Both the position numbers and the translations under genes were made by a program. Below the pieces are notes generated by a model. That model was not told the DNA's origin. It saw nothing but the letters and a program-made list of their open reading frames with translations, and did not search any database. Of a stretch of 64,000 bases of DNA, positions 14,037-63,935 are shown one piece after another. The stretch's first letter is position 1. The number at the start of each line of letters is the position of its first letter. Origin of the DNA: a virus; the IMG/VR virus record IMGVR_UViG_3300045303_000152, positions 1 to 64,000 of that record. The stretch is one strand, 5' to 3'.

Positions 14037-14567
14037 TCAAGCGGGGCTGGATTTATCATTGGCAGCCCCGCTAGCATCTGCTGCGGGCGGCTCGTCTGCT
14101 GGTTTCTCTTGCCTTGTCGACTGCTCTCCTGCCTGACCGTTGACCACATTAGCCGGCGTTGATGGTGGCGCATCATGAGCGTCAGCTGCCTCCCTGGCCT
14201 CCTTTTGCAGTCTGATGACTTCCTCCATCGCCCCGGCGTATTGGAGCTCCTTCTCCTTGAGCTGCTCGGTTAACAGAGCAACGACCTGCTCGGCCTCGGC
14301 GTATTTGGCCATGTAGTGAGCTGCTCGGTCATCTGCTTCTGCCCTTTGCTGTACCACCGCCCGATAGAGCAACTGCAAATCAGACTCGTTAGCGGGGCGC
14401 AGCAGACGTGGCCCACCTGGCAATCCGGGCAACGGCGGTCCTGCTACTCCAGCTTGCCTGGGCCTCGCCCCTGTACTTTGCGCTATTTTGCTAGCTGCTT
14501 CCTGAAGGCGACGTGCCGTCATTTCGCGAACGTTGTTGCTGTCTTTCGTCATGGGGGTGTCCTTCAT
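14037..14567 (-). CDS. hypothetical coiled-coil protein
   Basis: co-oriented ORF, heptad pattern. Confidence 0.65.
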   Translation of the reverse strand: MKDTPMTKDSNNVREMTARRLQEAASKIAQSTGARPRQAGVAGPPLPGLPGGPRLLRPANESDLQLLYRAVVQQRAEADDRAAHYMAKYAEAEQVVALLTEQLKEKELQYAGAMEEVIRLQKEAREAADAHDAPPSTPANVVNGQAGEQSTRQEKPADEPPAADASGAANDKSSPA

Positions 14568-14604
14568 TGATGTTGACTGGTGGGGGTATATGACCTTCTC
14601 AAAC

Positions 14605-15003
14605 TTAGGTTATAGCCTTTTCGTCGGCTTCGTCGGCCTCGTCGTCCTCGTTCTTGGTCTTGACCTGTGGTCGAGCTGCCTTAGCCCGAATTTCATTGAC
14701 ACGGTCCCGTTCTGCTTGCTCGGCTTTGGCGTGCTCCTCCTGTGCCTTCTCCGCCTCCTTTTGTTCCCTCACTTTCCTCTCGAAATCCGCTATTGAAATT
14801 TCCTTCATCTTAGCAAGGAAAGGAACTACCAAAGCATTCGTTTGCTCATGCGTGAGTATTTGTCGCTCACCGTACCCTCGCGTTAGATGTTTATCATCTT
14901 CTGTGACGACGTAACCATGCTCCAAAACGACGTGGGCAATGCGTCCATCTGGCTCAAGCATGATAGCCACGCTTTGTAGGTAGTCTTTCTTTGCCAAGGC
15001 CAT
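14605..15003 (-). CDS. hypothetical protein after the tail fibre (possible fibre chaperone)
   Basis: GGAGG SD before ATG 15003; position. Confidence 0.65.
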   Translation of the reverse strand: MALAKKDYLQSVAIMLEPDGRIAHVVLEHGYVVTEDDKHLTRGYGERQILTHEQTNALVVPFLAKMKEISIADFERKVREQKEAEKAQEEHAKAEQAERDRVNEIRAKAARPQVKTKNEDDEADEADEKAIT

Positions 15004-15024
15004 GTTAACCTCCATTGTTTATCA

Positions 15025-18000
15025 CTACGCTGCGAACGTTCCGATGTTGTTAGGTGACATACGGCGACATAGCCATCTACTACCAAGGCGCGGCGTGATG
15101 GTACCACCAACGTTTTTAGTAGCCTGTATCTTCAAACTCGTGCCGGTGCCATTTTGCAGTTTGATCTTGAAGCGGGCGAAGTGTTCAACGGCAGTTGTCA
15201 ACGTGCCCGTAGTAAATGCTAGTGCCGCTGTGGCGTCCTTTTCAATCTGTCCGCGCAGCATTGTGGCAGACGCTGACCCAGGCGCTACTATACCTGTTAG
15301 CGGGCTCATTTCAAAGTCGATGTTCTGCGAGGTCGGCGCCGCCGAGTTGGTCAGCGTCCAGGTCACCGTGCCGGCCGTGGTATTGAGGAAAAATACCTCG
15401 ATTTCGATTTCGTAGTAGGCGCTGGCGACTAGCGAGATGTTGGACGTGGTGCCGAAGAAATTTGCGATCGTGCTGATCGTCGAGCCGTCAGCCGTAAGAT
15501 GGAAATACTGCTCGACCGGAACAGCACCGCGACCGCTCGATGTATCTATAGTCTTATAGTGCTGCACGCCATCGTATTCGTGCGTGCCGGCCACTGGTGT
15601 AGTTAGATTGGTACCCGATGCCATGCGCAACGGTGCGACGGTCGCCGTTCCAGCGGCGATGTCAACGAAGTGCGCGGGCGCGTTCGTGCTGCCGATGCCG
15701 AACATGCCCGTTGCCAACAAATCTCCCGCATTTATACTGGTCGCAGTGCCGATCGAGACACCACCGGCAGCCTGAATGTAGAGCCTATCAGAATTGTTGG
15801 TGGCAAAGCTCAGCCTCGCGTTGGCCTGCAAGTTGATAGACGTGTTGCCGCCGGAGCTGTTTTGATTGATTAGCAGCCCAGAGCCAGACGTGTCGTAGCG
15901 GAAGCGCATTTGGCCGCCGCCGCCGCTCTCAACAATGTCAAGCCGAACGGCGCCACCATCAGATGTATTCTGGTAGCCAAGTGATATGCGCCCGTTTTTG
16001 TTTATATAGACGGCCTGCGTCGCGCCATTGTTGCCGACGTTGAATGCAATGCCATCGGTGGCGCCAACCCCGGAGGTGGACTGCAGGGTGAGCGTCGAGC
16101 CGGTGCCCGTGCCGCCGATCACCTTCGGAGTGGTAATCGACGTGGTGAACGCCGGCGCTGTGTCGAACACATTGACACCCGTGCCTGTACTATCGGTCAG
16201 GGCCGTGCGTAGATTGGCACTCGATGGTGAAGTTAGGAATGTCTGTATGCCTGCTGCATTTGAGGCGAGAAGGTTTACACCCTCGACTGCGGCCACGCCC
16301 GCCGAAGCACGGCTCAGCGTAGTATCGCTGGCAGCCCCAAGTTCGATTGTAGCGAATTGTGGATTAGAAGTCGTCTTAACAGCTTGGTCGAACCAATCGG
16401 CCAGGGTGGGATTGCCGTTAAGAGTGACTGTTCGATCTGCATCTCCAGTTGTGAAATTAAGGATACGGTCAGCGGTCAGGTTCGATGGCGTCTTGATATT
16501 TAGCCAATTGCTGGCATCACTATCGTGCAGAAACAGACCAGCATTAGTAGAAATGAATGCACGATTGGTCGTTAAGTCGCCGTAGATCGTTCCGGCCATA
16601 GCATAAATTTGCGACCAGCGCTTGCTGGCACTACCGAGCGTGTAGAGATTATCGCCCGTCGGCAGCATGTCATGCGGCCATGCTGTCGTTGTGGCAATGC
16701 CATTGCTGTGGATCGTCTTGTCGGTGCCGGTGCTCGAGTCCTGGATCGCCGAGCCGGTCGTGCCACGCGTATCGTTGCCGATGAACTTCCAGTGGTCGCT
16801 GCCACCCGCTTCGACGATGAGGGCAGCAGCATTAGCTCCAGCTGTAAGGTTGGAACCCGCCTCATTGAAGGAAAAGTCCCAATCACTAACGCCGGCCTTG
16901 GTATAGAAGGCCGCAGTGGCGAAGCCACCAACCGAGTTGCCAAAGGCGCGATTACGCACGCCGGCGGCGTTATAAATGCCGATCGCGCCCGAGGCGATAA
17001 GATTGCCTACCGCGTTGAGCTCACCTGCCCAATTGGAGCGCACAGCTAGCGCCGAAGAACCAGTGTTTAGGCCGCCGTAGATTTCGCTGGAGTCGACATA
17101 GAGTGCTTTGCCATCGGTGGCGTCGATACTGCCGCCGGGCGACTGTGAGATAACACACTGGCTGATGAAGGTCAGATATGGTGCAGTGCCAGCACCGAGG
17201 TTACGCAGGCCAATGGCAGCAGTATTCCAACAACCTGAGAAGTCACTTTGGTCGATATGCGTTTCTGATGCCCCGGTGTCGAGCAGCAGGCTGTAGGAGG
17301 TCGTCGGCCCAACTAGGTTCCAAACGACGCTGCCGTCGGCTATATCCTGGAAATAGCTCTTGAGAGCCGGAGCGCTTCCCGCCGTCGTGCCGGCGGTTTT
17401 GCATTGAAGAATGAACCCGCTCAGCGTAGAGGTCTGGCCAGCATCGTAGTGCGTGGAGTTAGCTCGGGCTGAAGGGGCGGTATACCCATAAGCCGGCGTC
17501 GAGACAGGCCAACTCTGGTCGCATTTACATCGTCGCATCCACAGAGCGATGCCGCGATTGTACACCGACGCAGAGCCAAGCGCGTAGGCGATGAAACACC
17601 TGTCGATGATCGTGTCGGCGGCATCATTGAGAATGCAGGACCAGCCACCAGTGATGTAACAGCGCTCAATGTTTGCATCGACGCAACCGTCGAGATGGAT
17701 GGTATGGGCGCTACCGCTGATAGTCGTAATGTCGAGCGTGTTTGAAACAAAGCCCTGCCCCCCCGCGCCGAAAATGGCGACATCGCGGATATCAGGCCGA
17801 CCGCCGGTGAAATGCAGCAACTTGAAGTTCGAGCCCTGGGGTGCCTGTATCGCGGTCGTAAGCCATCCTGACCCACGCATGATAATGCTATCTGAGATAG
17901 TCACACCAGAGGCAGGCGTGTGGGCCCCTGGTGGCATCCACAATTCTGAACCATTGTCAACGCAATAGTCGACCGCGTGCTGAAAAGTGTCAAAATCCGT

Positions 18001-41769: not shown

Positions 41770-41789
41770 AGTTCAATTTTGAACTTTAG
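41766..41789. promoter_or_regulatory. palindromic operator-like site CTAAAGTTCAA-TT-TTGAACTTTAG
   Basis: perfect 11-bp arms; the core recurs at 54476-54493 and 60714-60729. Confidence 0.7.
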
Positions 41790-44807: not shown

Positions 44808-45624
44808 ACGTTGTGCGATTTAGCTAGAACTCGGGTTCAAAATTGCACTGATGTTCTAATACCCCAATTTTGCCGTAAAAATTGGCGGATGTAAAATTTG
44901 CGAAAGGGCTTTTGACCCCTGGCTACTTAGATCTTTTACCGGATTTACCTTAGAAAATTATATCTACAGAATTTTGGGGCTGCCCCGCAAAGTTGTATCC
45001 GCATCTGTTGCTGGAAATCAACACAGTGAAAATTTCGAACAACCAGTCTGAGCCAGCGCTTGACATCCGTTGTATTTACATCCGAACGTCAATGCATAAA
45101 GCCTTTGATTTACTTGTCAATATGGCTCTTTTGCAACACGTTGCATTCTGCGATTGACGTGTCTTTTTGGCAACGATTTGTATTGCATCTACACTTCCGC
45201 TTCGGGCTGGCGTTGCCCAATTGTAAATAAAAGGCGACCTGTGATCCCCCGACAACACTTCAATTGAAAACCCGACATCGCACACAACTGCCATTGACTA
45301 TGGCAATCGCAACACTGATTTGCAATGCACCTACATCCCCAGCAGGTTCGCGACCGTAACTCCCTCGCAACACTGGCTCGCACAATCGCACAAACGCACG
45401 GCATTGCAACATCGAATGACTATTGACACGCACGAATCACTTCCAGGCTAGGGTACTAGCTAAAGGCTCGTTTGCTTGTCAGCGGCCACGCTAGGCGCAT
45501 TGGCTGCGTTGAGCCTTACAACTCTGTCATTGGCACAAGGTTTGCACTCGCGCACACATGCGCATGCCTGAGCAATGAGCGACCGATCACCCTGGCAAAC
45601 TCTAGTTGCAACAGCACCGCAACG

Positions 45625-52323: not shown

Positions 52324-52530
52324 ATGAGCGAGTCTGAAGCAGTTGCGTGGGTAGCACTGGGCTGGTGCTACTTCTGGGGAGCCATAGTTTCATTTGTACT
52401 GGTCTATATGCTTCGTGCTCCTGATCCAACAATAAATAGGTGGATTGTGCTGGTAACTTTCTCATGGCCAGTAACAATGCCTTGGATGATCGTTGATGCA
52501 CTCGCCAACATGGTGAAGGACAAGAAATGA
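52324..52530 (+). CDS. small membrane protein
   Basis: two TM helices; similar to 53730..53984 (ALGW.YFWG, WPV..P). Confidence 0.65.
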   Translation: MSESEAVAWVALGWCYFWGAIVSFVLVYMLRAPDPTINRWIVLVTFSWPVTMPWMIVDALANMVKDKK

Positions 52531-53492: not shown

Positions 53493-56400
53493 CCCCAAGA
53501 CACGGCGTAGCAGCAGCGACCTTCTTCACAGGCACGAGAAAGAATGGTGACAAGGTATGGATCAACGTGGCTGAAATAACCACGATGATCGACCACACCG
53601 ACAAGAAGAAACCTGACAACAGGTACACCATCATCGCAACGGTGCATGGCGTGAGCCAGCAAGCTATGTTTCTGAACGAAACGCCAGAAACCCTGATCGC
53701 CACGGCGGTAACGATAGTCGGGTAAGCCCATGTCAACTCGAGAAACGCTGCTGGTGCTGGCATTGGGTTGGCTCTATTTCTGGGGCCTGTTCATAACATT
53801 CTGCTTTCAAATGCTGACGGTAGCCTATTTCAAACAGACTAAGGAGATGAACGGCCTGCATTTGGCCTACATCATCTTCTTATGCATATGCTGGCCTGTT
53901 AGCTTACCCAAGGCTGGCGTGCCAGCTATCGGCGACATGCTGTCAACGTTGGCAGCTCACATCAAGCAAAGGAGAAAGAAGTGAGAGTGTTCAGGCGCCT
54001 GTCAGATGATGGGCATGCTTCTGTATTCAAGTCAAGGGTAAGCGCCGGCATGATCGTACTGGAAATTGCCTATGCGCATGGCTTGGCCAGAATGATCACA
54101 ACCTTATCCAAGGAGGAGGCCAAGCGTTACGCAACGTGGTTACTAAGCAAAACGGAGTGAGCTAATGACTGGGGGTCACATGACGTTCATTGAGGAATAC
54201 CTAGGCTGGGAGATATACCTCGATATGCCAGCGAAGATGTACTACGCAATAGATCCTAGTAGCGGCACTCGCTACGGGCCTAGCCGCAGTCGAGCCGACT
54301 TGAAACTCTATATCAACAGAGTAAAAAGTAGCTTTAGCCTGTAACAATTAACATTCAAAGAAAGGAGAACTGACCATGCCGCAACTTGCGAGAGTTACCG
54401 TGCTGATGGGCCTAGTCACGGCATTTGCCATCGTGCTGGCTATCAGCTTGATCGTGATATTCGGGTAGTCTGCAAAAGTTCAAAATTGAACTTCACCAAG
54501 GAGAGGGAAATATGAGCGAGCATCGAGACGTGCGTAGTGACGCTTATTGGCAGGAGTGGGCCGATAACTACAAGCCGACGCCAAGTGGTCCACAGCCAAC
54601 CGCCACGGGTTATCTGCTGCTGGCGGCGTATGGTAAGGCTAAGCGGGCACTCATTCGGCTGGTGTGCTTTGTGTACCAGCACGACATCGAGACTGAAGAG
54701 TGGGATGAAGTCAACTACAAGATCGAAAACATACCCTGGCACTGCCGGCGTTGCGGTGCTGGCGGCATAACCCGCTAAGGCTAAGCTTCAACACAATCAG
54801 GCAGTATGTAAACTCTAAGGAAGAGAGGGATCGAGCTATGGCTAAAACAACCCAAGTCTGCATCAATGAGAACTGCGTGTTCGTGTTTCAGACCAATCAC
54901 GGCTCGCTAGTAGTGAGGTTCGAGAAGGTAGGCACCCGTGATACTATTTACAGCGTCGTGACCTATCAGGACAAAAACAATACAATCATCGGGCCGAACA
55001 TCGGCTACGCGTTCAAGCCGAGAAACAGCAACGAGGCGTGAGCATATGTGGATACACAAAGTAGAACGAATATTAAAGGAGGGAACTATGGATGTGCAAA
55101 TCGAGGCGATGCGTTGTCAAGTATCGAACGTGTTCTACCCTCATTGGGCACTCAGAAGGGTAGCGCTTGATACTAGCAAGGACACCGGCAAGAGCATCAT
55201 CGTGCATGAGCCGTTGGCTCGAATGACAGCAACGGCTGTAAGGAACAATAGCCTAGAAGCTTTTGTGAAGCTGGTACGACTGTCGCAAACACTAAAAGAC
55301 ATAAAGGAGTGAGTAGCATGGGGAAGAACAGACGTAAGCCAATCGAGCGCAAGCGGCTAGGCCCAGTCGGTGGGCGATACTCGACGCCGTTCTTGAACTA
55401 TGGCGCGGGCGTTATGAAGGTAACGCCACGACCCATCGACATCAAGATACCTCGCCGCTTGCTGCTTGCCTTGCAAGTACGTGAGGATAGCAAAAAAGAA
55501 TGGGGTAACCTGCGCGCGCATTCGATCAACCAGTACACACCCGAAAGCCAGAAAAACAAGCTAAGAAAGGAACTCGAGTACTTGCGTGAGGGTTGGATGG
55601 TGAATGCCTACTTCGGTAGCAATGCATCATTCAGAATTCACGAGGTTTACACCCGGCCCGAGGCAGCCACCTACTAAGGAACATGAATATCATGACAAAG
55701 AAAGCAAAGAAAAAGCTCAACGGCGTTCACGTGCAAGTCGCAGCGGAGCCAATCGAAGCACCTCAATACCTGGGGCACAAGCCGCGCATGGGTAAAGGCA
55801 ATAAGATCGCCTTGGCCCGAGCAATAGCAGCAGCACGCAACGCCGCTCGCAAGAGCAACTTGTTCGACGGCATCAGGGGGCACGGCATCGTGATACTCAT
55901 AGATGCTGCATTGCAGGATGCATTCTTACCCAAGGGCAAGATCGAGGTGCGCCGCGAGGGGGATCGCTTACAACAAGCATTGAAGCTAGTGAGAGACAGC
56001 CAGCGCATGCAGCAGGCACCGCCAGGATTGCTAACCTAATGGAGCCAGAAATGAAACACAAGCTAAAGCCCAAGGCTAAACCTAAGCTTGAGGAGTACAT
56101 ATACGCAATCGCAAATCCAGTCACCGGCATGGAGTTGGTGCGCTCGACCTGGGCGTACTCACTGCAGGAAGCTACTCGCCAAACTGAGAATATTGCTCGG
56201 TGCTTTGGCAAGTCAACAGAAGTTGTTCATGTTGAGAGGGCCTGATGATTAGAATAACACTGCCCCCTTATCCAGAAGTGATCCACATCATGGGCACGCA
56301 CGGCCTACAATCGCTGACCACTGATAGATTTGCATACCTAGAGAGGGAGTACAAGCAACATCTAGCCTTGCTGGTCAGCATGCAATACCACGGCAAGTTC

Positions 56401-58905: not shown

Positions 58906-61234
58906 GACGGCTTTTGAAATGGTGGCGTAGGGAGAATTTGCGTGCAGCGGTCTACGGCGAGCAAATGCGATTTTTCTACCTCACACACCCCGACGACGTA
59001 TCGGCTGAAGAGCTAGCAAAACATCGTGCGGATTGGGCTCGCCGTTTGCAACTTGCTGATGCTGAGTACAGGCTGGAGGAGAAGAAGTCATGAACTACTA
59101 CTGGGTTTGGTTTCGTACCTCTAAGTACGAGTCACTGGAAATAGCCAAGTTCGATAGTCAGGAGGGTGTGACGACCTTTCTAAACGCTTACGCCGGCAAT
59201 AGTGAACTCGAGTTTACCGTCGTGTTTGGATCAGAGATCAAGTTCAGAGCTGTCACTGTCATCACCAAGTACGAGCGGGATGATACCGGCGAAAACCAAG
59301 GGGAGAAGAAAGCGTGACGGACCAGTACTGTAGCAAGTGTAGAAGTAGAATGGACATGATTATCACTGACTGCTCACAAATAGGTAGGTGGGTGGGCAGT
59401 GATGGGCTAACCGCAAATCGCCAGTTTAGAAAGGACACTGGTGAAGAGATTATGGTGCGTATGTGGGTGTGCCCCAACTTCAATAAGAGAACCAACAACA
59501 ATTGGTTTCAAGTAAACGTGCTAGGGCATGCCAAGTACGAGCAGCATGACAAGCAAGCAGAGTTTGTAAACCATGACAACCCGCACGCTGTAATCCTATA
59601 GCGCGCAACCCCAACCAAGGAGAACTACCCAATGTTACAAGATAAGCTCATACCCCTACTGCTGGGCGCTGCTGTTTGCACCCTGGCCGGCGCGCTGGTA
59701 TTTGGCGTTTCCACCATACCACGTGACCCGCCGCTGGCGCCGATCAAGCCAATGAGCTTGAACACGGCAATCCAGCATTGCAACGATGCCGCCTACCAGA
59801 AGGCGCCCAACGTCAAGCAGTGGGACATCACCGAATGCCTGTACCATGCGCTGGATGGCAAGTACCCGATCAAGTCTTCCATTTCGAAGAAGCTGCCACA
59901 GTAGGTATGTTATAGGCGAGGCTGCATCAACCCCGAGGGCTCAAATGCGACGCAAACAACTAACCTCACAAAGGCGCAGAATCGCACCGCCGGCGCCTGA
60001 TCGCCCGCCAGTAAAGGAGATGCTGGTCGGGCCAAAGAAAGCTTTCAAGCCATCGCTGCTCGCGCAGTTTCAGCGGTTGCTTGAAAAGACCCCCGGCAAC
60101 TACTGGATAATCGTGTACAGTGGCAAAGGGTATACTGACCTGGATTTGAATACTACCAAAGAATCCACCGTCAGCACCATACGCCACTTCAAGCACTGTT
60201 ACCCAGATGCCAAAGTGATCTACTTGAAAATACCCGACGAAGAGCCTAAAGCTAGCCCCAAACCAGCCAAGCGCAGCTTTGATAAAAAGAAGTACGCGAA
60301 AGCTGCCAGAGCCCGTCAATACTAAACCCAGTGGAGGCGTACCGTGCTTCGCTTAATAGTCAAAGTGTGCCCGAAAGAAAATGGCCGTTTCAACGGTGAT
60401 GACGAAAGCATCAACCTGAAATGCTACAAAGTTTTCGAGGTGGAGCACGAGGACTTGGAGGACTACATCACTGAGCAGCGTGATAATGGCCAGCCAATCA
60501 AGCTGGTGGCAATAGAAGTGTTCGAGCAAGCGCCACTGCCATTGGCAACGCCAGTGTTTCCAGAGTACAAGCCGAGCGATGCAAGCCCCGCCGCGCAAGG
60601 CTCATTGATGGCAGCACTCGCAGCGAAGCACAAGCCGGCTAATGACTTCTGGGGCAGCCTGTTCAAGCGTAAACGCTACGTGCCGCCGCTCAACTTGCCT
60701 AAGTAGAATTGGCGTTCAATTTTGAACTTGTGGGGTAGAAACAGCTAGGGCGGTCGAGGGTGATGGGATTCCCTGACCGCCCTAACTCGTTGCACCCGCG
60801 CCGTCAACCCCTTGCGCGTCACAGGAGCATCATAACACTAGCGTAAACATACCTAATCGTCAACCTAAACTGAGGGAGAACTAGCTATGAGCCTTAATTG
60901 GGAGAACGACAAATGCCGCAAGTGCAAGCTAGCGCGCACACCTGAAGGGCACGACCCATGCCTAGGTGAACTGCCGGGGGTTTTGTTCGCATGTTGCGGG
61001 CATGGCAACGGTGCGGGGTACATCTACTTCCAAAGCGGGGTGCTTATCAACTTCGGCTTTTGCTCGATTGAGCAAGTACCGCCAGAAAAGCTGGCTCAAA
61101 GCCGAGCATTGAAGCAATCAGAGTTATTCGAGGCTTACAAGCTCAGGCGATTGAACAATACCAGCATTGTTAAGCGAGATTCTGATGCATTAGTAAAGGC
61201 TAGAACATTCAGGTGGAGTAAGCAGTCGGGCTAG
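58902..61234 (+). CDS. run of small hypothetical genes (58902-59093, 59090-59317, 59314-59601, 59632-59904, ~59945-60325, 60344-60706, 60887-61234)
   Basis: packed with SD motifs; 59314 and 60887 are Cys-rich (zinc-binding-like). Confidence 0.6.
60714..60729. promoter_or_regulatory. operator-like palindrome GTTCAATTTTGAACTT
   Basis: third intergenic copy. Confidence 0.65.
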
Positions 61235-61343
61235 AGGGTTAGGCTGGCAGGCATAGGCTGGGCAACCCCGTTGCCGCCCCTACGAGCCTCGGCACTGGTG
61301 CTAGGGCTGGTACTGGGCATGCAACTAGAGTGCTAACCAGCAT

Positions 61344-61388
61344 TGTTGAACCAGAAGAGAGTGAATAGTAGATTGGCGGGGTTCAACA
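61344..61388 (+). promoter_or_regulatory. sigma70-like promoter bracketed by a 9-bp inverted repeat
   Basis: TTGAAC-N17-TAGATT; TGTTGAACC 61344-52 / GGTTCAACA 61380-88. Confidence 0.55.
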
Positions 61389-61790
61389 CGTTACTGGCTT
61401 GAAGCAGTTTCAGCGACGACCTACAGGCGCTTTTGTTTTGCCAGAGCCTCAACTGGCCGCCCCTACGATCCGCAGGGTTTGGTTTGCATCAGTGGAGCCC
61501 CCACTGATCGAGCTACGCGCTTCCATGAGCGTGTTGCCGTATGCTCGCTGTTCGGTAGCAACCGGCCTTCAAACCGCATTGCTATATCCGGGGTTATGAG
61601 ATTTGTCGCAGTAGGTGCTCGGCAGCACCGTCGCCTTTCATTGGTGGGCGGTGAAGGGTCAAGTTCCGCTGAAGCATCATCAGGCCGTAATCGCTAGGCA
61701 GTAGGCGGCGGAGGTCACGCTTCAACACCACTCCGCTCTTTAACAAGCTCGATCAGCTATTAGCTGGGCTCGCCTAGTGTGTAAGTACAA
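61381..61790 (+). ncRNA. candidate large structured ncRNA of unknown family
   Basis: three nested long-range helices enclosing several hairpins, in a 640-nt gap with no credible ORF. Confidence 0.5.
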
Positions 61791-61877
61791 CCATACTGCG
61801 ATTCTTAAATCAAGTTGGTAATCGTATGTTGAAAGTGAGCAAGCAATCGGGCTTCGCTCAAACTCGAAGGTAACATC

Positions 61878-62828
61878 ATGTCACGTATGGAATCCAAAGC
61901 TTTGGAGCGGGCTATTGAAGCGTTCCGCAAGTTTACTGAAACACAAACAACATTGATGGCATTGACCATCGGCCCTGAAGAGCTCATGAAGTTTTTGCAA
62001 TGCAGGGGGAGTTGCATCATAACAGTAACACCCTCGCTCGCTCGCTGGATACTTGATAACATGGGCGGGCGCAATCGCGATATCGTCAAGGCTACGGTAG
62101 ATCGGTACGCCGAAGCCATGAAGAAGCCCAATGGCTGGCGCGTCACTGGTCAAGGGCTAATCTTCAACCGGGCTGGTAAGCTTGACGATGGGCAACACCG
62201 TCTCAGCGCTTGCATACAAGCCGAGGTACCATTCCAAACCTTCGTGGTGTTCGGCATGGAAGAAGACATTTTCAAGTACCTCGATGACAACAAGCCGCGC
62301 CGTGGCTCGGACATTTTCAAAATCAACGGCGTGCCTCTCTATGAGCCTACGGCAAATGCCATGCGTTGGCTTATGGTGCTTCGCAGTGAGGGTAACAACA
62401 AGAAGCGCGTCAGCAACGATGACAAGCTTGATTTCTATATCGAGCATGTTCGCGAGGTTGACAAGGTAGAGTTCATGCGCGAGTGCGCCGAAACCGCCTT
62501 GCAATTGGTGGGTGTTGGTGGGTTTCCAAAGGGGATCTTGGCAGCGCTGCTGTTCGAGGCCGGCGAAAAGCACGGTGAGCCAAAAGCACAAAAGGTCATG
62601 CAGGACCTGAAGCTCAACAAAGGCGAAGCGCGGATCTTCCGCGAAAACTACGGCAAAATGATGACTGGCTTCAGAGACGACAAGTCGTCATTGACTGACA
62701 CTGCCAAGTTGCGAGCCATTGCCGAGGGCGTTACGGCTTGCATCGAGGAACGCCGCGTTTCGGTTAGCGCGCTCATGCGTGCAACTAACGTGAACAAGCC
62801 GGAGGAAACTGAGCCCAGCAACAAGTAA
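61878..62828 (+). CDS. ParB-like (DGQHR-type) protein
   Basis: VTPSLA..IL...RNR....V..YA..M....W...GQGL.F...G.L.DGQHRL.A. Confidence 0.8.
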   Translation: MSRMESKALERAIEAFRKFTETQTTLMALTIGPEELMKFLQCRGSCIITVTPSLARWILDNMGGRNRDIVKATVDRYAEAMKKPNGWRVTGQGLIFNRAGKLDDGQHRLSACIQAEVPFQTFVVFGMEEDIFKYLDDNKPRRGSDIFKINGVPLYEPTANAMRWLMVLRSEGNNKKRVSNDDKLDFYIEHVREVDKVEFMRECAETALQLVGVGGFPKGILAALLFEAGEKHGEPKAQKVMQDLKLNKGEARIFRENYGKMMTGFRDDKSSLTDTAKLRAIAEGVTACIEERRVSVSALMRATNVNKPEETEPSNK

Positions 62829-62846
62829 CATTTGGAAAATGGATGG

Positions 62847-62879
62847 GGTAGGCTCAGTATGTATAGTACGAGCCTACCC
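62847..62879 (+). other. intergenic stem-loop between the two ParB-like genes
   Basis: GGTAGGCTC/GAGCCTACC stem. Confidence 0.55.
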
Positions 62880-62900
62880 TAACCTTTTGGAGCTTACAAC

Positions 62901-63650
62901 ATGGCCGACTTCAAGGTACAAAATCTACGGGTTGCGAGTATAGGCTTTCCAGTCATTCGCCTTCGCAAGATCAACGATCAAAATGTTGCCGCTTTAGCTT
63001 CTTCCATGAAGCGAATTGGACTTCAACAGCCAATCATCGTTTACCATGCCACGCGCGGGGCGATGGGGTTTGAGTTGGTCGCTGGTAAGCATCGGTTGCT
63101 GGCAGCAAAGAAATTAAAGTGGAAAACCATACCGGGGCGCGTGCTGCCTCACGATCAAGTTAGGCAGGCTACTTTGATTGAGATAGATGAAAACCTTTGC
63201 CGAGCTGAGTTAACACCAGCCGAACGTGTGGCGCACCTTGCCGAGCGTAAGCGCTTATATGAAGAAGATCACCCTGAAACCAAACATGGCAAGGCCTCCA
63301 AAAGTAAAGGCGCAAAGTTTGCGCCTTTATTTAAGGATAAAGCTTTTCATAAAGATACAGCAGATAAAATTGGTAGGTCAGCGCGAGCAGTTCAACTTGA
63401 CGCAGAACGTGGCGCAAAGATAGCGCCAAAAGTGCTTCAACGTATTCAAGGCACAGCTCTTGATAAAGGGGTACATCTCGATACATTGAAAAACTTGAGT
63501 ACTAAGGAACAGCATAAGTACGTGGACGATATGTTTCGTAAACCAAAAGAGCCTAGGTTAAAACCAACAGTCCGGTTGATAACATGCCCACGTTGTAAGA
63601 ATTGCCCTGATTGTCACGGCACTCGAAAGATCGAAGTTGAAATCGACTAA
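62901..63650 (+). CDS. ParB/Srx N-terminal domain protein with HTH and C-terminal Cys cluster
   Basis: LASSM..IGLQQPIIV, LVAGKHRLLA, EIDENL.R.ELT.AER. Confidence 0.85.
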   Translation: MADFKVQNLRVASIGFPVIRLRKINDQNVAALASSMKRIGLQQPIIVYHATRGAMGFELVAGKHRLLAAKKLKWKTIPGRVLPHDQVRQATLIEIDENLCRAELTPAERVAHLAERKRLYEEDHPETKHGKASKSKGAKFAPLFKDKAFHKDTADKIGRSARAVQLDAERGAKIAPKVLQRIQGTALDKGVHLDTLKNLSTKEQHKYVDDMFRKPKEPRLKPTVRLITCPRCKNCPDCHGTRKIEVEID

Positions 63651-63655
63651 CATCA

Positions 63656-63889
63656 ATGGAGCACGAGAAAATGCGTAAGAATGCCAAAGTAGCTCGCTCA
63701 GACCGCGAGCTTACAAAACTAACTGATCTGGAGAGACTTGCGTGGCGCTTGGTCCGTCACGACGCGCACGCTGCCTTCAGAGAAGGTAGACCTGGATGTA
63801 TTGAACTGAAGCATCTTTACGCTTGGTTAGTAGAGCAGCGAAGCATTAAGCTCGGCCATCCATTACACAAGCTGTTATATCAGGAGTAA
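63656..63889 (+). CDS. hypothetical protein
   Basis: co-oriented ORF. Confidence 0.55.
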   Translation: MEHEKMRKNAKVARSDRELTKLTDLERLAWRLVRHDAHAAFREGRPGCIELKHLYAWLVEQRSIKLGHPLHKLLYQE

Positions 63890-63935
63890 GCTTGAGTATA
63901 GCGTAGCCAACGAAACCTCAATGGAGCAGACTACC

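Follow-up and report, generated by a model that had tools for sequence, protein, structure and literature searches.

A mosaic non-coding gap upstream of DGQHR-type genes in soil phages probably represents structured RNA on the strand of the genes

What occupies a long gene-free gap that is kept in otherwise tightly packed phage genomes? The window analyzed here, the first 64 kb (64,000 nucleotides, nt) of the 109,752-bp IMG/VR virus record IMGVR_UViG_3300045303_000152 (estimated to be 85% complete), contains a non-coding gap of 643 nt on the plus strand, at 61235 to 61877, between an open reading frame (ORF) of 115 amino acids (aa) and one of 316 aa. An initial annotation, which gave the gap as about 640 nt, proposed that it holds an undescribed, large multi-branched non-coding RNA (ncRNA) with its own promoter, or else a regulatory leader for the DGQHR-type and ParB-like genes that follow. 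The observation is real, but it was over-interpreted with regard to the global fold and the promoter. Comparison with two relatives indicates that this segment probably acts as structured RNA in the orientation of the genes. The reading that we favor, tentatively and with somewhat less than even confidence, is a clade-restricted structured intercistronic leader RNA on the plus strand.

The first question is whether the gap encodes protein, and the comparison confirms that it is truly non-coding. In tblastx comparisons between the gaps of the window and of L002, one of the two relatives described below, every one of the six frames is interrupted by stops in the conserved part. Nor are the short ORFs kept as proteins: the longest plus-strand ORFs of the two gaps, at 61479–61697 (72 aa) and at 14732–14914 of L002 (60 aa), have only 20 residues in common, located where the DNA is identical or nearly so, and no open frame in the gap is conserved as a protein in the relatives, which speaks against a small-ORF gene. 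Readthrough of the stop codon of the 115-aa ORF was considered as well and was rejected because the frame after the stop is not conserved.

How far the gap is shared could be judged from two relatives only, which are all that the searched collections contain: L002, a 71-kb IMG/VR contig reached through a UvrD-type helicase encoded 2.3 kb upstream of the gap (helicase 88% identical), and L016, a 2.5-kb metagenome contig reached through the 115-aa protein. A blastn search of phage GenBank records with the stretch returned no match. Scans of IMG/VR with one core pattern and one 5'-island pattern returned the L002 contig only, an exact 28-mer returned nothing there, and a search of IMG/VR with the 316-aa protein alone identified no relative. 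Among the GTDB species genomes, queried with the helicase, no prophage relative appeared (helicases at most about 40% identical over the best segment, and 29% for the two longest matches). A search of 73 loci and both phage records with nhmmer and with covariance model R3 recovered the known copies only. Both phage records, the window genome and L002, carry one copy of the element per genome, and model R1 run against the window's own genome gave the self-match alone. Parts of the stretch are present in 24 soil and rhizosphere DNA runs, and the four soil DNA runs examined yielded contig pieces that are mostly L016-like variants.

Both relatives keep the gap. In L002 it spans 617 nt (14485–15101) after a homologous small ORF, in L016 it measures about 620 nt, and nhmmer aligns the entire gap length to L002 (E = 4.5e-47). 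By blastn, the genes flanking the locus are 86–94% identical between the window and L002; positions 61155–61628 have no match, 61628–61798 match at 90%, and 61798–63920 again have no match. L016 is a natural recombinant of these two types. Its small ORF ends in the L002-type tail, its gap then begins as in the window, and its core and cargo gene, from about 61640 onward, are again of the L002 type. The joints near 61233 and 61640 recur in contig pieces from independent soil runs, and the locus thus consists of four modules: the ORF tail, a 5' domain (61235–61640), a core (61640–61803) and the cargo gene. The two modules of the gap are as follows.

61235 to about 61640, plus strand: 5' domain, exchangeable, in two deep forms (one shared by the window and L016, the other that of L002) that do not match each other by blastn
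about 61640 to 61803, plus strand: conserved 3' core, about 94% identical, with the L016 joint at its left edge and the end of L002 homology at its right edge

The two modules differ in their divergence relative to silent sites. Between 61640 and 61778 the core of the window shows 8 differences in 139 nt from that of L002 and L016, compared to 12–22% difference at the four-fold degenerate sites of three flanking genes (window against L002), a lower divergence that points either to purifying selection acting at the nucleotide level or to exchange in more recent times. In the 5' domain the divergence far exceeds that of silent sites, and its two forms are therefore best taken as old alleles brought in by recombination and not as products of local drift. 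Islands conserved between the two forms are TTGCCGCCCC; CAGCGAC; CCCCTAC-N8-GGGTTTGG-N3/4-GCATC; and GTCGCA-K-TAGG.

Such a pattern could also be produced by a spacer without function, composed of the remains of a decayed gene or of a recombination scar, in which hairpins are expected at 57% GC and the core is the result of recent exchange. Recombination is frequent here, with joints near 61155, 61233, 61640 and 61800, only two deep sequence forms are available, and the folding z-scores given below lie close to zero in L002 and in the 5' domain. Nevertheless, all three genomes, tightly packed elsewhere, retain about 620 nt of gap, short islands and hairpins hold their fixed offsets despite divergence of about 50%, and no frame in the gap shows any protein remnant, so that we consider a functionless spacer quite improbable. 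Two narrower ideas were rejected. A co-evolving pair formed by the basic tail of the 115-aa ORF and the RNA 5' domain is contradicted by L016 and by soil run X3, both of which join an L002-type tail to a window-type 5' domain at about 61233. A tandem duplication of about 180 nt, proposed from repeat pairs 176 and 183 nt apart, fails because the two halves align no better than the short repeats themselves.

If the gap acts as RNA, its helices should be kept in the relatives. The proposed helical elements are listed here.

61250 to 61318, plus strand: hairpins A0 (GGCAAC/GTTGCC) and A (61276–61318); L002 has hairpins at the same place in another register
61344 to 61388, plus strand: hairpin or inverted repeat B, TGTTGAACC/GGTTCAACA, 9 bp, with the −10 hexamer of the proposed promoter in its loop
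61390 to 61424, plus strand: 5' strands of three proposed long-range helices, with partners at 61680–61691, 61667–61675 and 61611–61616
61440 to 61477, plus strand: hairpins C (61440–61444/61453–61457) and D (61461–61464/61474–61477), from the covariance model and alignment
61482 to 61513, plus strand: extended hairpin E, GTTTG-C-ATCAGTGG/CCACTGAT-CGAGC, from the fold and comparison with L002
61515 to 61566, plus strand: hairpins F (ACGCGCTT/GAGCGTGT, two of its pairs being G-U) and G, with no obvious equivalent in L002, where this part is some 35 nt shorter
61614 to 61659, plus strand: hairpins H (GGTGCT/AGCACC; GGCTT/AAGCC in L002) and I (61633–61643/61649–61659), from comparison
61692 to 61779, plus strand: domain J, a three-way junction closed by GCTAGGC/GCCTAG and containing a GGAG/CTCC hairpin with an invariant 17-nt loop

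The local hairpins are kept in the relatives, within an architecture that is modular and mosaic. Hairpin C occurs in all three sequences as a 5-bp stem with an 8-nt loop directly 5' of CGCCCC, and its stems read GCCAG/CTGGC, GGCAG/CTGCC and GTGGC/GCCAC. A covariance model of hairpins C, D and E built from window-type sequences only locates the L002 site with 18.8 bits (E = 7.5e-5), compared to 7.6 bits at that site for a sequence-only model of the same alignment. In an alignment fitted to the structure model, double-sided changes fall in four of the five pairs of hairpin C and in six pairs in total; shuffles give 2.0 ± 1.2 such pairs (1 of 500 reaches six) and slid controls 0–1. Hairpin E is built from wholly different Watson-Crick stems of 8 and 9 bp at an equal offset after the invariant GGGTTTGG. 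The L002 version, ATCGATCTG/CAGATCGAT, forms nine Watson-Crick pairs above another lower stem, and a GGTTTG strand extends the hairpin in both forms, partnered with different downstream strands.

Hairpin A in L016 and in independent soil runs shows C61290>T, which turns a C.A opposition into a U-A pair, and A61312>G, which turns U-A into U-G. Hairpin B keeps its stem in L016 with a longer, different loop, and L002 has another stem (AGCAACA/TGTTGCT) at the same place. Hairpin H carries two double changes and one G-U change, and hairpin I, with 11–14 bp including 3–4 G-U pairs, carries two substitutions that are both G-U compatible. The core further contains a 33-nt invariant linker. The core variants differ at two dinucleotides within domain J. 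These sit on opposite arms of the GGAG/CTCC hairpin and replace C-G by U-A; a second fold of this segment explains them about equally well. Three of the hairpins named in the initial annotation, GCCAG/CTGGC, ATCAGTGG/CCACTGAT and GGTGCT/AGCACC, thus gain support from compensatory or G-U-compatible changes, and such changes are found in local hairpins only. As the three sequences amount to effectively two independent deep forms, an R-scape-type statistical test of covariation is not applicable to them.

The hairpins also favor one strand. The G-U pairs of hairpins I and F and of the lower stem of E would become A.C oppositions on the minus strand, and hairpin I can therefore form on the plus strand only. 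The summed local folding energies are −160.6 kcal/mol on the plus and −137.5 on the minus strand for the window, and −148.0 and −142.3 kcal/mol for L002. From about 49 kb onward, every gene of the window lies on the plus strand, in the same orientation as the element. An antisense RNA from the minus strand was rejected, since that strand folds worse, the G-U-dependent hairpins fail there, and a minus-strand promoter-like site present in L002 and L016 is missing from the window.

Strand bias bears equally on the proposal that the gap works as DNA, either as a regulatory or loading region for DNA-binding proteins or as a replication origin or single-strand initiation site. The proteins involved could be the downstream DGQHR-type and ParB-like products or a reader of GTTCAA-WW-TTGAAC palindromes. 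Hairpins B, C, E and H are perfect inverted repeats, and domain J contains a 13-bp perfect palindrome, CAGCTATTAGCTG (61754–61766), which is invariant in the three sequences and could be either a protein-binding DNA site or a 5-bp RNA stem. The arms of hairpin B hold, in the opposite arrangement, a half-site of the GTTCAA-WW-TTGAAC family, a palindrome over-represented in this genome (8 matches with at most two mismatches, compared to 2.2 ± 1.4 expected, a count that no shuffle out of 100 attained). Two copies of the motif GCCGCCCCTACGA lie 183 nt apart in the gap, and both are kept in L002. Helicase and ParB-like genes adjoin, and a passage in PMC4507180 describes DndB, the founding DGQHR protein, as reportedly binding its own promoter region.

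However, binding sites hold their sequence, and here the stems change and still pair. The lower stem of E, like hairpins F and I, depends on G-U pairs, and the substitutions in these helices are G-U compatible on one strand only, and L002 keeps the element although it has no ParB gene. The features of an origin are likewise missing from the gap. The GC content of 0.57 exceeds that of the flanks (about 0.52), and an AT-rich unwinding stretch is lacking; the cumulative GC skew does not turn; and no iteron arrays or tandem repeats were found, the only direct repeats being two pairs of 12–16 nt. Taken together, we regard a DNA-level site as unlikely.

We then asked whether the local hairpins are closed into one multi-branched RNA, as the initial annotation had proposed. 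The complementary segments that it listed are all present, and the minimum free energy (MFE) fold of the window sequence by ViennaRNA uses them, but the relatives do not bear out the nested helices. None of the 26 pairs of the long-range helices is changed on both sides in the three sequences. For the outer helix, the GGCTTGA strand is missing in L002, and L016 has a C.A mismatch and has lost one T of TTAC. The ACCTAC/GTAGGT helix overlaps the supported hairpin H by three bases, and CACCGTCGCC/GGTGGGCGGTG is specific to the core variant of the window, one of its pairs being lost in L016 and L002, which fold H plus I. The folding energies are unremarkable. The interval 61344–61790 has an MFE z-score of −1.72 on the plus strand (matched by 2 of 100 shuffles) and −0.38 on the minus strand; the homologous L002 interval scores −0.25 on the plus strand, and the 5' domain alone (376 nt) scores about −0.5 in both phages, no better than shuffles. 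The 3' cores (195 nt in the window) reach −2.06 and −1.74. The element is therefore best viewed as a row of local stem-loops plus a conserved 3' domain, and not as a single closed multi-branched molecule.

The transcription signals were considered next, beginning with the promoter that had been proposed.

61346 to 61374, plus strand: proposed promoter, TTGAAC (61346–61351), 17-nt spacer, TAGATT (61369–61374), 8 of 12 consensus positions

The hexamers and the 17-nt spacing are present, but a promoter scan of 60800–62200 with a threshold of 9 of 12 consensus positions returned no site. In L016 the −10 is replaced by an insertion and in L002 the −35 is replaced, the −10 region being the most variable part of the window-type allele; neither gap contains a plus-strand promoter-like site, and the claim of a dedicated promoter did not hold up. 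No plus-strand intrinsic terminator closes the element in the window, L002 or L016, and the sole plus-strand terminator-like match in L002 is hairpin H itself followed by GTGGTCTTTC. The lack of a conserved promoter and of a terminator fits read-through transcription from the upstream genes into the cargo gene. On the minus strand, the promoter-like sequence TTGACT-17-TATGTT (9 of 12) lies just right of the core, in the cargo-specific spacer, at 15030–15002 of L002 and 927–899 of L016; it would read back over the core, and the number of such sites is within chance.

These signals weigh on the possibility of a stand-alone, trans-acting structured ncRNA of about 400–550 nt, a new class with its own promoter or cut from the operon transcript and perhaps acting as a partner of the DGQHR/ParB-like proteins or in host takeover. 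The conservation of the hairpins and their plus-strand bias suit such an RNA as well as they suit a leader. The lack of an Rfam match would make it undescribed if real, the window interval beats shuffles somewhat through 5'–3' pairing (z −1.72 and −2.34), and the invariant 17-nt loop of domain J or the 33-nt linker of the core could be a recognition surface. Against it, the weak promoter is lost in both relatives and no terminator bounds the element, the long-range helices lack double changes and are partly absent from L002 and mismatched in L016, the L002 interval has a folding z-score of −0.25, and a trans target was rejected because nothing elsewhere in the 110-kb genome is complementary to the element beyond chance. 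A stand-alone RNA is accordingly a less probable outcome, and we rate it low. More doubtful still is a new modular class of phage RNA, a discrete molecule of about 550 nt excised from the operon transcript with an exchangeable 5' domain, whose two deep forms keep hairpins, and a conserved 3' three-way-junction domain bearing invariant single-stranded segments, which might serve, for example, as a partner or regulator of the adjacent ParB/Srx-like DGQHR proteins or as a decoy against host defense.

The leader is preferred over an independent gene because no promoter is conserved, no plus-strand intrinsic terminator closes the element, it lies in the orientation of the genes, and both known cargo genes belong to the same family. 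We infer that the gap is transcribed and acts in cis. It would form an untranslated structured segment of a rightward, plus-strand polycistronic mRNA in a small clade of soil phages, with a conserved Cys-rich ORF on its 5' side and, on its 3' side, an exchangeable cargo gene of the DGQHR type (ParB/Srx-like, phrog_5931). Such a segment would be a string of about ten mostly local stem-loops in two modules: a 5' module (61235 to about 61640) whose two deeply diverged forms keep hairpins, and a 3' core (about 61640 to 61803) consisting of hairpin I, the 33-nt linker and three-way junction J. Its predicted role would be to set the processing, stability or read-through, and the translation of whichever cargo gene follows, and the conserved core may double as the homologous stretch for cargo-gene exchange.

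The 3' end of the gap and the genes following it in the window are these.

61804 to 61877, plus strand: cargo-gene-specific spacer with the ribosome-binding site of the 316-aa gene, showing no relation to the 90 nt that L002 has in this position
61878 to 62828, plus strand: 316-aa protein with a DDGQHRL motif, matching phrog_5931 (unknown function), without a Pfam or NCBIfam match
62901 to 63650, plus strand: 249-aa ParB_N-domain protein without a counterpart at the L002 and L016 locus

The cargo of L002 (15102–16538) is a 478-aa protein with the motif NGDHRL and a 190-aa N-terminal extension, and no ParB gene is present. The 316-aa and 478-aa proteins both match phrog_5931, yet they are only 23% identical around the motif. 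On this comparison, the place after the element looks like a fixed slot in which the gene is replaced by a remote member of the same PHROG (DGQHR-type, ParB/Srx-like). The suggestion of a leader serving the DGQHR/ParB pair survives weakly: both forms of the element precede a phrog_5931 gene, but L002 and L016 have no ParB gene. Upstream of 70 further DGQHR-type genes from IMG/VR, the gaps do not exceed about 260 nt as measured crudely from ORFs, and neither nhmmer nor the covariance model gives a match.

Several of these results weigh against an intercistronic leader. Those 70 genes without a comparable leader mean that the tie of the element to the DGQHR family is not general. The count of six double changes depends on an alignment fitted to the structure model, the z-scores of the 5' domain and of the L002 interval give no sign of unusual folding, and the low divergence of the core may be due to recent exchange and not to selection, because L016 recombined within the core. 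The perfect Watson-Crick inverted repeats of B, C, E and H and the 13-bp palindrome in J suit DNA sites equally well.

Does the element belong to a known class of RNA? A scan of the whole window with Rfam 15 gave no match at the gathering score, and a permissive scan of 61100–62000 (E < 10) returned only mcrA (16.5 bits, compared to a threshold of 57.6), NPPA-AS1 and P31, all far below threshold. No match was obtained to GOLLD, ROOL, HEARO, 6S, RNase P, tmRNA, SRP, group I or II introns or riboswitches, and the description as an undescribed RNA stands insofar as no described family in Rfam matched. No tRNA or tmRNA was found, and a search of the 109,752-bp record, 85% complete by estimate, with the reverse transcriptase (RT) profile PF00078 gave no match, which speaks against a retron, a diversity-generating retroelement or another RT-linked ncRNA. 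Kinship with the multi-hairpin elements at 46–48.5 kb of the same genome was also rejected, as neither sequence nor architecture matches.

Among known systems, the early genes of phage T7 are separated in their polycistronic mRNA by RNase III processing hairpins. The element resembles such intercistronic stem-loops in being a set of non-coding, coding-strand hairpins within one transcription unit and without a promoter or terminator of its own. It differs in its size of about 570 nt and about ten stem-loops, some tenfold longer than a T7-type processing site, and in its two-module mosaic. With GOLLD and ROOL it shares a length of several hundred nt, a place in a phage genome, multiple helices and the absence of a known function; however, cmscan with permissive filters matches neither at E < 10, and the element does not adjoin tRNA genes, has no support for a closed global fold and is known from one small clade only.

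The c4 RNA of P1 and P7 and the CI RNA of P4 are leader-encoded RNA regulators of phage operons. They resemble the element in having a long untranslated leader on the gene strand, complementarity between upstream and downstream segments (here 61390–61415 with 61667–61691) and alternative leader forms. However, L002 does not preserve this complementarity, L016 has it in weaker form, and no anti-repressor or immunity genes are nearby. ParB–parS and DndB–operator sites are comparable in their position directly upstream of a gene of the DGQHR/ParB superfamily and in their perfect palindromes, but the stems of the element covary, some of its helices depend on G-U pairs, and it is kept where the ParB gene is missing.

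If real, the element would join the few structured non-coding modules described from phage genomes as one of unusual length, and it comes from uncultured soil phages, in which RNA-level control is barely known. Its build is unusual, with deep alternative 5' forms joined to a conserved core exactly at the point of cargo exchange, and suggests that non-coding RNA modules share in phage mosaicism as genes do. The practical value is limited at present; models R1 and R3 provide seeds for a wider metagenome search.

The gene upstream of the gap and its surroundings gave some further observations.

60887 to 61234, plus strand: 115-aa Cys-rich protein without a Pfam, PHROG or NCBIfam match

The first 49 residues of this protein are identical between the window and L002 and show a CxxC...C...CC.H pattern that by eye is zinc-ribbon-like. 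The last approximately 26 codons of its ORF (from about 61155) form part of a diverged block in L002, and the basic C-terminal tail is exchanged independently of the remaining protein. The 15-mer TAACCAGCATTGTTG has two exact copies in the 110-kb genome, at 61334–61348 and at 77376–77390 of the full record (blastn-short E = 0.055), both intergenic and on the plus strand, with a 12-nt copy at 61160–61171, near the 3' end of the 115-aa ORF within its last codons. A regulatory motif is a possible reading; the distance of the 15-mer to −10-like hexamers is unequal at the two sites.

The palindrome GTTCAA-WW-TTGAAC is found exactly at 41771–41784, 54478–54491 and 60714–60727, between genes, and with one mismatch at 44835–44848, and is possibly the operator of a phage regulator. 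A 321-aa protein encoded at 52527–53492 matches phrog_7245, annotated as an anti-restriction protein (E = 4.5e-70), and on account of this match the region from 49 to 64 kb, mostly unknown small genes, resembles an early host-takeover or counter-defense block. Finally, about 214 nt lie between the 120-aa and 111-aa ORFs of L002 (13786–14000), compared to 9 nt in the window (60727–60736), and this stretch directly follows the GTTCAATTTTGAAC palindrome, marking a further mosaic joint at an intergenic palindrome.

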